Virus record (IMG/VR): IMGVR_UViG_3300029186_000001
Origin: a virus
Taxonomy: Duplodnaviria > Heunggongvirae > Uroviricota > Caudoviricetes
Direction: 5' to 3' (one strand)
Length of the DNA: 64,000 nucleotides
This document shows positions 29,141 through 30,361 of this stretch, piece by piece. Each line of letters begins with the position of its first letter. The first letter of the stretch is position 1. The notes beneath the pieces are model-generated. The model had not been told where the DNA came from, searched no databases, and worked only from the letters and a program-made list of their open reading frames with translations. A program made the position numbers and the translations under genes.

Positions 29141-29922
29141 TTCACCGCAACGGAAAGAGCATTCTTGGTGGACCTGTAGATTGGGATATGAACCCGTTAC
29201 AGGAGAATGCTCTTACCTGTTACGTGCTCCGTTTCGTGGAGCTAACGGCGGGTGATCGGGCCGCACCAGGCTGGACTTATTTCAGCGTTATGCTCATGCC
29301 AGAGAATCAAACTGTGATGGTCGGTGCTGAACTCCGACACAGGGTTGTAGCAAGCCCCGCAAAGCGCGCACTACTGTAGTTGCGGCACATCAGCCTGTGC
29401 ATTCACCACAATGTTGATAACACTGGTTGTCACGCTGCAACGCAACATTTATTCGTAGATTGGGATATGACCCCGTTACGCCAGTGTTCTCAACGTTGTA
29501 GTGCCGGTTACGGTTCCGGCCAGGCCTCTTCCTCAACGGGGTGTTCTCCATACGGACTACCGTTTATTGGTCGTTCCTGCGGTTTATGTTGTGAAGCCAG
29601 ATGCTTATCTTCTGGTTGCTTCAAAGAGCTGCACTTCATCACAACGGTAAGAGCACTCGATGCATTTAAGCCAAGCCCCATAAGGGAGAATGCCCTTACC
29701 TGTTGTGTTGTGATGACCGGTGCTGATCTCCGGCTTGCGGTTATTTCAGACTCTCACGGGCGTTTAATTGCCCCGCCGAACAGCTCTTTTCCGCAATAGC
29801 TGCAATGTCTTTCGCGCATCAGCCTGCGCATTCATCACAACGGTAAGGGTACTTTGTAGGGATTCGAACCCTCTGCCAAGCTCGGCGATCTCCGACGTCG
29901 CAAAATACCCTTACCTGTTGTG
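29141..29922 (-). repeat. Array of four related long-hairpin elements with T-arm-like cores
   Basis: Units at ~29141-29226, 29386-29500, 29631-29707 and 29814-29922, each with a CACAACAGGTAAG / CTTACC(T)GTTGTG outer stem; two carry GGGTTCATATCCC or AGGGTTCGAATCCCT; the last abuts tRNA-Thr. Confidence 0.5.
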
Positions 29923-29923
29923 C

Positions 29924-29999
29924 TGGTGCCGATTAACGGACTCGAACCGCTGACATCCTGCTTACAAGGCAGGCGCTCTACCAACTGAGCTAAACCGGC
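29924..29999 (-). tRNA. tRNA-Thr (anticodon UGU)
   Basis: 76-nt cloverleaf, anticodon loop CTTGTAA, ends CCA. Confidence 0.9.
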
Positions 30000-30001
30000 A
30001 T

Positions 30002-30077
30002 TGGCGATGGTGGATGGATTTGAACCATCGACCCGTTGATTAACAGTCAACCGCTCTAACCGCTGAGCTACACCATC
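30002..30077 (-). tRNA. tRNA-Asn (anticodon GUU)
   Basis: 76-nt cloverleaf, anticodon loop CTGTTAA, ends CCA; 2 nt from tRNA-Thr. Confidence 0.9.
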
Positions 30078-30280
30078 ACTTGCCGGGTACGTCTCCGGCG
30101 AGGGCTTCCACCTCCGTATGCTTTTCGGCGCACCGCGCCCTGGCTGCAATTCGGTAACAGGGGATGCATAACCCTGGCTTCCAGCGTGATTAGCGCCTTC
30201 AGCATGACGGGATATACCCGTAAATTCGTGGAACTGTACCCAAAGTGCTGTTAAGCACCGCTGTTACGCTGAAAAGAAGA

Positions 30281-30361
30281 CGCAACAGGAAAGGACGCTG
30301 ACCAACAGATGGCCCCTTCTCGTTCATCTGGTTAATCACACCAGCGCCCTTACCTGTTGTG
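30281..30361 (-). repeat. Fifth hairpin-element copy upstream of tRNA-Asn
   Basis: CGCAACAGGAAAGG ... CCCTTACCTGTTGTG imperfect long stem of the same family. Confidence 0.4.

Follow-up and report, generated by a model that had tools for sequence, protein, structure and literature searches.

The stretch of DNA analyzed here (64,000 nucleotides (nt), hereafter the window) derives from a virus of the Caudoviricetes (IMG/VR record IMGVR_UViG_3300029186_000001), and this report concerns an array of structured elements interleaved with tRNA genes on its minus strand. Positions 28900-30800 of this P1-like phage-plasmid sequence are 99% identical to RCS47, vB_EcoM-813R1, and P1. Along the minus strand the order is dmt (end at 30750), the Pban promoters with the C1 operator, a "dicF-like region" (30534-30635), hairpin U1, tRNA-Asn (GUU; 30002-30077), tRNA-Thr (UGU; 29924-29999), hairpins U2 to U5 with the spacers between them, open reading frames (ORFs), and tRNA-Met(CAU). 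Both tRNA genes of the array were identified by ARAGORN and scored 74.5 bits (tRNA-Asn) and 72.9 bits (tRNA-Thr) against the Rfam tRNA model. The operon head, consisting of Pban and the divalent C1 operator Op72ab (~30732-30759, minus strand), was located by colinear alignment to the annotated P1 record, and an inverted repeat covers 30726-30765 at this site. An earlier note on this DNA had placed all of the elements in a single transcription unit headed by a double C1 operator; the operator was found where expected, but a strong intrinsic terminator (30550-30572, terminator scan), with which the dicF-like region mapped from the P1 annotation ends, intervenes in the proposed unit. The Rfam DicF model gave no match to this region (30534-30635).

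Five related long hairpins (x hairpins, U1 to U5) were found on the minus strand at 29141-30363, with minimum free energies (MFE) of -35 to -43 kcal/mol. Their z-scores ranged from -4.8 to -6.0, none of 200 shuffled sequences folded as well, and in each case the minus strand was 4-10 kcal/mol more stable than the plus strand. Folding of each unit therefore bore out the five related minus-strand elements described in the earlier note, whereas the 12-14 bp outer stem assigned to them was too short, the nearly perfect stems measuring ~20-23 bp. The arms are conserved (CACAACAGGUAAGRGC / GCYCUUWCCGUUGUG) and carry an exchangeable "cargo" at the tip, which is an extended stem in U1 (30282-30363; MFE -37.9 kcal/mol, z = -4.82) and tRNA-like in U2 (29836-29923; MFE -40.8 kcal/mol, z = -6.02). 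U3 (29636-29716; MFE -37.0 kcal/mol, z = -5.75) is also x-type, and U4 (29402-29505; z = -5.78) and U5 (29141-29228; z = -5.58) were grouped as an anticodon stem-loop (ASL) subfamily; the arms of U4 have diverged (CUACAACGUUGAGAACAC / GUGUUAUCAACAUUGUGG). As had been noted before, one unit adjoins tRNA-Thr by 1 nt: U2 begins 1 nt past its CCA end. U1, U3, U4, and U5 come after other helices, not terminators, and the hairpin of U3 also occurs in an E. coli prophage, past a terminator in the interval from Q to the holin gene.

A small conserved hairpin is enclosed by three units (U2, U4, and U5), not by two as described before. For U2 the previous label of a T-arm-like core is apt, since its T-arm sequence is canonical (AGGGUUCGAAUCCCU, 29858-29872; T-arm motif GGUUCGAAUCC), and its cargo combines a 7-bp acceptor-like stem rich in AU with a D-like arm (GCGA/UCGC) and the T arm, 12 nt standing in place of an anticodon arm. 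T-arm-like hairpins recur within the cargo of unrelated x hairpins (loci L374, L408, L135, L392, L249, and L364). ARAGORN and the Rfam tRNA model (RF00005) recognized only three real tRNAs in the window and rejected U1 to U5; the best tRNA-model match of U2 was a weak 15-bit tRNA-Sec alignment through the acceptor and T arms. These rejections bear on the idea that the units are decaying tRNA pseudogenes of a rearranged phage tRNA cluster, for which the acceptor-, D-, and T-like parts of U2, the anticodon-arm-like hairpin of U4 and U5, and the extra real tRNAs (Tyr, Ser) in the arrays of relatives could be adduced. Such decay is nevertheless very improbable, because compensatory changes keep the stems across genera and because the elements occur in lambda and in many prophages without a nearby tRNA. 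The "tRNA remnants" offered as one option in the earlier note are, by the same token, a poor fit with elements under purifying selection across distant phages.

The core shared by U4 and U5 (ACGGGKTCATATCCCAATC) was used as a query and was found in at least 120 viral contigs, as well as in prophages of many Enterobacterales genera, seated on outer stems of very different sequence. A covariance model (R1) was built from 19 representatives, and covariation was evaluated on 49 homologues (44 distinct) from at least 18 enterobacterial genera and phages. Paired cells amounted to 91.5% in the 49 homologues, compared with 78% for the shuffled and 36-50% for the slid controls, and both sides change in 23 of the 32 pairs; the observed values were reached by none of 500 shuffles. 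One mid-stem mismatch is itself conserved across the homologues. G.U pairs outnumber A.C pairs in the stems (92 vs 24), an excess on the transcribed strand, and R1 scored the lambdoid copies at ~99 bits in the sense orientation and ~35 bits in the antisense orientation. In the window, R1 detected U5 (63.8 bits) and U4 (56.3 bits) and, through the stems, picked up U3 (19.8 bits, E = 0.006) and U2 (17.9 bits). A generic arms-only model (alignment A3) was rejected because MAFFT set bulged and unbulged arms out of register.

A hairpin with nearly the same arms lies in lambda at 44784-44866, directly past the late terminator tR' and ~8 nt after the U-tract. Arm matches to this hairpin were 20/21 and 16/20 for U5 and 18/21 and 15/19 for U1 and U2, those of U1 to U3 falling at 15-18 of 19-21 positions, so that arm identity to lambda is 75-95% for U1, U2, U3, and U5, U4 being diverged; R1 scored the lambda hairpin at 23.8 bits. 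LPR2 is a lambda small RNA (sRNA) of ~63 nt that is Hfq-bound, stable, and specific to the lytic cycle, and that adjoins 6S RNA (bioRxiv 10.1101/2024.10.31.621285). The Northern probe for LPR2 (P844, supplementary file) maps to lambda 44816-44850, within the hairpin, and the part of the hairpin above the basal CACAAC/GUUGUG pairs is exactly 63 nt long. LPR2-type hairpins were defined as imperfect hairpins of 75-105 nt with the arms ..CACAACAGGUAAGAGCA.. / ..UGCUCUUWCCGUUGUG.., and the units of the window were placed in this type by their arm identities and R1 scores. They also occupy a leader position, being co-oriented with the ban operon, with U2 directly behind tRNA-Thr. No earlier account of the structure of LPR2, of the hairpin family, or of the P1 copies was found in the literature, and the literature searched for P1 transcript maps or prior descriptions of the hairpins yielded nothing relevant.

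Among 72 distinct contexts of the U4/U5 family, an intrinsic terminator ends within ~10 nt upstream of the hairpin in 55, and in 3 the hairpin directly follows a tRNA CCA; U2 and the copy in D6 and P7 adjoin tRNAs as well. The pL leaders of lambdoid phages begin with STnc100 and its terminator, after which come the hairpin, GGAGAAAC, a small UGCAG-loop hairpin, and the first ORF; the late-operon copies are situated past Q/tR' and ahead of the holin gene. The arrangement in these pL leaders is fixed (locus L005 at 3140-3330, L008, L009, and many IMG/VR loci), the initiator-anticodon-like hairpin that follows STnc100 and the terminator being succeeded by GUGGAGAAAC, a GC-rich UGCAG-loop hairpin, a Shine-Dalgarno site, and the first ORF (yfdP or others), and the terminator tail CGCUCUUUUUACAA in the lambdoid pL leaders resembles boxA. 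Homology to the put antiterminator of HK022 was rejected, since the HK022 genome contains neither an R1 match nor an x or y sequence motif, and the precursor of the 24B_1 "microRNA" of an Stx phage was rejected because it lies at a different locus, between lom and vb_24B_43. No copy was found in the E. coli K-12 cryptic prophages DLP12 and CPS-53, so that published K-12 RNase III maps are unusable here. When the window and related loci were scanned with Rfam, tRNAs and one STnc100 match below threshold were all that emerged apart from miRNA, YrlA, and tmRNA matches at chance level; no known ribozyme or riboswitch family was among them.

The spacers of the array are themselves conserved modules (y modules). 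Three of them (yA, yC, and yD) have a common design, in which a closing stem of 8-10 bp is followed by AAU and the 5' hairpin GCGCA-GGCUGA-UGCGC, and a variable middle leads on to the 3' hairpin (G)CCGG-AGAUCAGCA-CCGG(C), which adjoins the closing strand. In yA (29707-29841, minus strand) a 9-10 bp closing stem (GUUGUGAUGA/UCAUCACAAC) is followed by AAU, the GCGCA-GGCUGA-UGCGC hairpin, a middle hairpin, and the 3' hairpin CCGG-AGAUCAGCA-CCGG. The corresponding 5' and 3' hairpins of yC (29311-29412, minus strand) are GCACA-GGCUGA-UGUGC and UCGG-AGUUCAGCA-CCGA. Module yB (29497-29645, minus strand) is degenerate, with the 5' sequence GUUGUGAUGAA and the 3' hairpin CCGGAACCGUAACCGG kept and the 5' hairpin lacking, and yD (29029-29149, minus strand; z = -3.0), of the STnc100 subtype, is followed by a U6 tract and then by the start of a 78-aa ORF (28995). 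A further structured spacer (30078-30281, minus strand) ends in a y-type 3' hairpin (CCGGAGACGUACCCGG, 30083-30098) 5 nt before tRNA-Asn. The mini-hairpin that had been reported to follow three of the elements belongs to these modules; it is exact after U2 (GCGCAGGCUGAUGCGC, 29814-29829) and U4 (GCACAGGCUGAUGUGC, 29385-29400), and after U5 only a variant is present.

Against the Rfam model of STnc100 (RF02076), yD scored 37.8 bits over model positions 31-147, which falls short of the gathering score (47), and yA, yC, and yD all fold into the core architecture of that RNA, in which GGUGAAU and a 5' hairpin follow the closing stem and a 3' hairpin adjoins the closing strand. A full STnc100 match found elsewhere (49.1 bits, above the gathering score) consists of the y core plus a terminator, with an x hairpin directly after it. 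The GGCUGA subtype was found in at least 120 viral contigs in ~90 diverse versions, and its closing stem covaries, 27 distinct closing strands being present in 60 diverse examples. About half of the y examples follow a long hairpin of unrelated sequence, and in 20 of 59 an ORF starts 20-51 nt downstream of the module, these ORFs being unrelated; a protein partner was rejected, as the ORFs downstream of 59 diverse y modules belong to unrelated families. A strict link to tRNA genes was likewise ruled out, since a tRNA lies within 1 kb in only 23 of 127 y contexts (co-oriented in 22 of the 23). Every member has complementary loops (GCUGA and UCAGC), and with the 5' loop invariant, covariation cannot be shown for a loop-loop pairing, which was set aside as unproven.

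As observations beside these, the domain GUGAAU-GCGCAGGCUGAUGCGC ... GCCGGAGAUCAGCACCGGCCA is widespread (L364-L467, IMG/VR), cloverleaf-like, and often placed just upstream of the first ORF of an operon; the two window copies scanned (29707-29841 and 29311-29412) matched no Rfam 15 family. In locus L368 a phage tRNA with an initiator-type anticodon arm (CCGGGCUCAUAACCCGG) lies ~150 nt downstream of a y module, and in several other contigs tRNA genes lie directly downstream of y.

Within the ASL subfamily the loop motif is GGG-YUCAUAW-CCC, and both members in the window, which hold GGG(G/U)UCAUAUCCC, fit a 7-nt loop N-U-C-A-U-A-N closed by three consecutive G-C pairs (a working, uncurated description). 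The loop of U5 reads GGG-UUCAUAU-CCC (29183-29195, core ACGGGUUCAUAUCCCAAUCUAC) and that of U4 GGG-GUCAUAU-CCC (29462-29474, core ACGGGGUCAUAUCCCAAUCUAC). The lambdoid core reads GACGGGCUCAUAACCCAAUCC, its loop GGG-CUCAUAA-CCC equals metZ positions 29-41, and 14 nt of it (CGGGCUCAUAACCC) agree exactly with E. coli tRNA-fMet positions 28-41 (checked on metZ), which comprise the three G-C pairs typical of initiator tRNA and the CAU anticodon loop; U4 and U5 keep the three G-C pairs, U33, CAU, and A37. Judged by these sequences, the loop labeled T-arm-like in the earlier note is better read as a copy, or near-copy, of the initiator-tRNA anticodon stem-loop. The accompanying remark that none of the units has an anticodon arm is thus correct only in that no unit is a full tRNA.

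The resemblance raises the possibility, which we consider doubtful, that the cargo loops are mimics of tRNA parts that act as decoys or sponges and would titrate a host tRNA-recognizing factor during lytic growth. U4 and U5 would offer the initiator anticodon stem-loop, and U2 would offer a tRNA body that includes the T and D arms. Candidate targets would be a VapC-type anticodon nuclease, MetRS, IF3, the 30S P site, or tRNA-processing enzymes; VapC-type toxins cleave the anticodon loop of tRNA-fMet. Although the 14-nt identity and the features retained in the P1 version point in this direction, only 3 bp of the anticodon stem are kept and the flanks (AC / AAUC) are unlike tRNA. With a loop-free anchor the exact motif was recovered in 118 of 127 copies, which are mostly close relatives and hence weak evidence of loop constancy. 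The recurrence of T-arm-like cargo in unrelated x hairpins and the occurrence of the elements in the same operons as phage tRNA genes would suit mimicry, but the cargos of U1, U3, and lambda LPR2 are not tRNA-like. Similarly doubtful is a broader form of this proposal, in which x hairpins would constitute a phage toolkit of tRNA-part mimics (the initiator anticodon stem-loop in U4, U5, and their many lambdoid relatives, a tRNA elbow and acceptor body in U2-type units) released from lytic leaders to decoy or titrate host tRNA-recognizing factors such as VapC-type toxins or tRNA-directed defence nucleases, the y module being a second widespread cloverleaf-shaped phage RNA, so far catalogued only in its STnc100 subtype.

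When the arrays of P1, P7, D6, Ro157c2YLVW, and the window were compared, they proved colinear, differing in which whole units had been gained or lost, and the breakpoints fell within the repeated arms. The segment 29658-29830 is absent from P1, Ro157c2YLVW has a tRNA-Tyr in the array, and D6 and P7 have a tRNA-Ser(UGA) followed directly by another hairpin. The tRNA-Ser(UGA) of P7 (NC_050152; locus L004, 2527-2613) was detected by ARAGORN and is absent from the annotation of that record; D6 annotates the same gene with a caveat. The spacer between U2 and U3 (yA) is 96-98% identical to sequences of lambdoid phages and of a Klebsiella siphovirus and is carried by 1345 of the 5426 complete E. coli genomes, for the most part within prophages of the chromosome. 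In locus L085 (3790-3874) a recombinant hairpin was observed in which a U4-type 5' arm and a U5-type 3' arm are joined via the common core, leaving the stem broken, which indicates recombination between units.

Such exchange might also be expected of inverted-repeat cassettes acting at the DNA level (attC-like or miniature-transposon-like), in which the RNA structure would be incidental. The whole-module insertions and deletions that break in the repeated arms, the L085 hairpin, and the 96-98% identical modules shared by P1-like, lambdoid, and Klebsiella phages could be accommodated in this way, but homologous recombination between repeated arms explains the insertions and deletions as well. 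The arms end in ..CACAAC / GUUGUG.. like integron core sites and have a conserved bulge and mismatch, yet GCACAAC / GTTGTGN deviates at one position per core site from RYYYAAC/GTTRRRY, and the P1, lambda, and prophage contexts that were examined show no associated integrase. Since, in all cases examined, the hairpin lies on the strand of the tRNAs, the promoter, or the downstream ORF, and given the G.U excess on the transcribed strand and the stable RNA product in lambda, DNA cassettes are a very unlikely explanation.

The strand opposite to the array was examined for coding. In the P1 reference (NC_005856), plp and upl are annotated as coding sequences (CDS) antisense to the array (plus strand; P1 69472-70041, locus L001 2347-2916; window ~29188-29799), and plp overlaps trnT by 30 nt; the window has plus-strand ORFs of 109 and 139 aa there. 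It is extremely unlikely that the region encodes Plp and Upl. RCS47 also lists both CDS, whereas the other deposited phage records are mixed, several listing hypothetical proteins and others none. Against coding, Pfam gave no match for the plus-strand ORFs, one of them has its C-terminal third replaced through a module insertion of 175 nt relative to P1, and whole-module insertions and deletions among P1 relatives cut the plp and upl ORFs. In the 40 PGAP records listed of 1475 matching E. coli RefSeq records, only tRNA-Thr and no CDS is given under the match, and the stem covariation of the opposite strand is difficult to square with coding. The annotated plp and upl are therefore probably annotation artefacts. 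The previous statement that the stretch holds no credible protein gene is supported by the Pfam and PGAP results; colinearity with annotated proteins of a relative, which had been named as a result that would speak against it, does exist formally with P1 plp and upl, but these ORFs are weak, antisense, and without a Pfam match. Beyond the array, positions 27951-28995 (minus strand) hold the 78-aa membrane ORF and a 275-aa Band_7/SPFH lipoprotein, where P1 has tciA, tciB, and tciC, and these are followed by tRNA-Met(CAU), which corresponds to tRNA-Ile2 in the P1 annotation.

On balance, we consider it probable that in this array tRNAs, LPR2-type hairpins, and STnc100-type domains together form a polycistronic leader that is processed into stable small RNAs. 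The hairpins belong to one family, spread through the temperate phages of enterobacteria, with conserved structure on the transcribed strand, they are exchanged as modules, and one homologue, lambda LPR2, has a stable product. The core of the previous reading, a family of structured RNAs and not a gene cluster, is upheld by the strand-specific stability, the ratio of G.U to A.C pairs, the covariation, and the lambda homologue. The 1.7-kb stretch from Pban to the first ORF would be the untranslated leader of the C1-controlled ban operon, composed of self-contained RNA modules 0-4 nt apart (real tRNAs, x hairpins, and y domains). During lytic growth the long transcript would be cut at the module junctions and each module would persist as a stable small RNA, the long stems serving as signals for processing and protection and the cargo loops for any trans-acting function. 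By analogy, the P1-type copies may be processed like LPR2, and the cutting may be done within the stems by RNase III or, at the junctions, by RNase P or RNase E. A stem of ~20-23 bp with a conserved internal mismatch is compatible with an RNase III processing stem. The arm sequences alternate along the array, which puts the basal pairs of a hairpin in competition with the closing stem of its y neighbor; once the hairpin stem had been cut, self-closure of each y module would be possible.

Several results weigh against this leader model. The strong terminator at 30550-30572 sits between Pban and the whole array, and a search for promoter-like sites within the array found none, so that transcription of the array depends on read-through; the tRNAs, the hairpins, and ban would all need such read-through for expression. 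The processing is extrapolated from one lambda Northern blot, and the 63-nt match between the hairpin and LPR2 is no more than suggestive, the ends of LPR2 being unmapped. R1 missed U1 and detected U2 and U3 weakly; moreover, its alignment is model-fitted and most members were gathered by motif or anchor, so that the invariance of the loop is partly built in. Neither yA nor yC matches any Rfam model, and yA, yB, and yC gave no STnc100 match at E <= 10.

The same stems could serve in cis only: cut by RNase III or RNase P, they would free the tRNAs and neighboring RNAs, and they would structure the leader against Rho, with the excised hairpins as by-products. Near-perfect stems of 20-23 bp with one conserved internal mismatch, and units set tight against tRNA 3' ends and terminators, would be expected under such a role, as would the hairpin upstream of y, which is kept as a structure with wholly different sequences in distant phages; LPR2, for its part, has only two RNA partners in the RNA-RNA interactions recorded by RIL-seq (bioRxiv 10.1101/2024.10.31.621285). 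The cargo ACGGGYUCAUAWCCCAAUC, however, remains unchanged while the stems diverge by many compensatory changes, which points to sequence-specific recognition of the tip, and LPR2 is stable and Hfq-enriched. A purely cis-acting role is thus unlikely, though it carries some weight. Were the hairpins processing stems only, the P1 annotation would still be corrected and RNA families missing from Rfam would be defined. P1 and lambda rank with the most thoroughly studied phages. With the leader model, a stretch of P1 so far occupied by two doubtful annotated proteins gains an identity, as does its lambda homologue, noticed only recently as an uncharacterized sRNA, and one family would link LPR2, STnc100/PasD, and phage tRNA clusters into a modular "leader RNA" system. 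The phage leaders moreover contain an exact copy of the initiator anticodon loop, which, if it is a mimic, would represent a new kind of phage counter-measure or translational manipulation.

Among known RNAs, the units of the window were compared with LPR2, with which they share near-identical arms, a position in the leader of a lytic operon directly past a 3'-end-forming element, and detection by R1. Lambda has a single copy past tR', in contrast to the five copies within a tRNA array, and the LPR2 cargo has no anticodon-arm-like or T-arm-like tip, unlike U2, U4, and U5. The structure, family, and ends of LPR2 are undescribed in the source report (bioRxiv 10.1101/2024.10.31.621285). The y modules have the architecture of the STnc100 model core (RF02076, positions 31-147) and, like STnc100/PasD, are found in prophages at the same spots, after cI or Q; the PasD prophage sRNAs, which are related to STnc100 (bioRxiv 10.64898/2026.05.13.724894), were likened to y by description only. 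They differ in that yD alone matches the model, below threshold, and that yA and yC with the GCGCAGGCUGAUGCGC hairpin match none although their subtype is widespread.

With tmRNA and YrlA, U2 shares acceptor-like, D-like, and T arms without an anticodon arm, in a different topology; the tRNA-like domain of tmRNA and the Y-RNA-like YrlA RNAs are tRNA-like and lack an anticodon arm. The YrlA match in Rfam (25.6 bits, gathering score 69) only overlaps real tRNAs, the tmRNA matches are weak and lie elsewhere, and no partner of the Ro or SmpB type is implied. Co-transcribed non-tRNA RNAs are represented by species 1 and 2 RNAs of T4, and long processing stems around excised units by the rRNA operons and the T7 early RNase III sites. 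The array resembles these systems in both respects, with no known sequence relationship, and differs from them in that its stems hold small variable cargos and its alternating arms can close both x and y.

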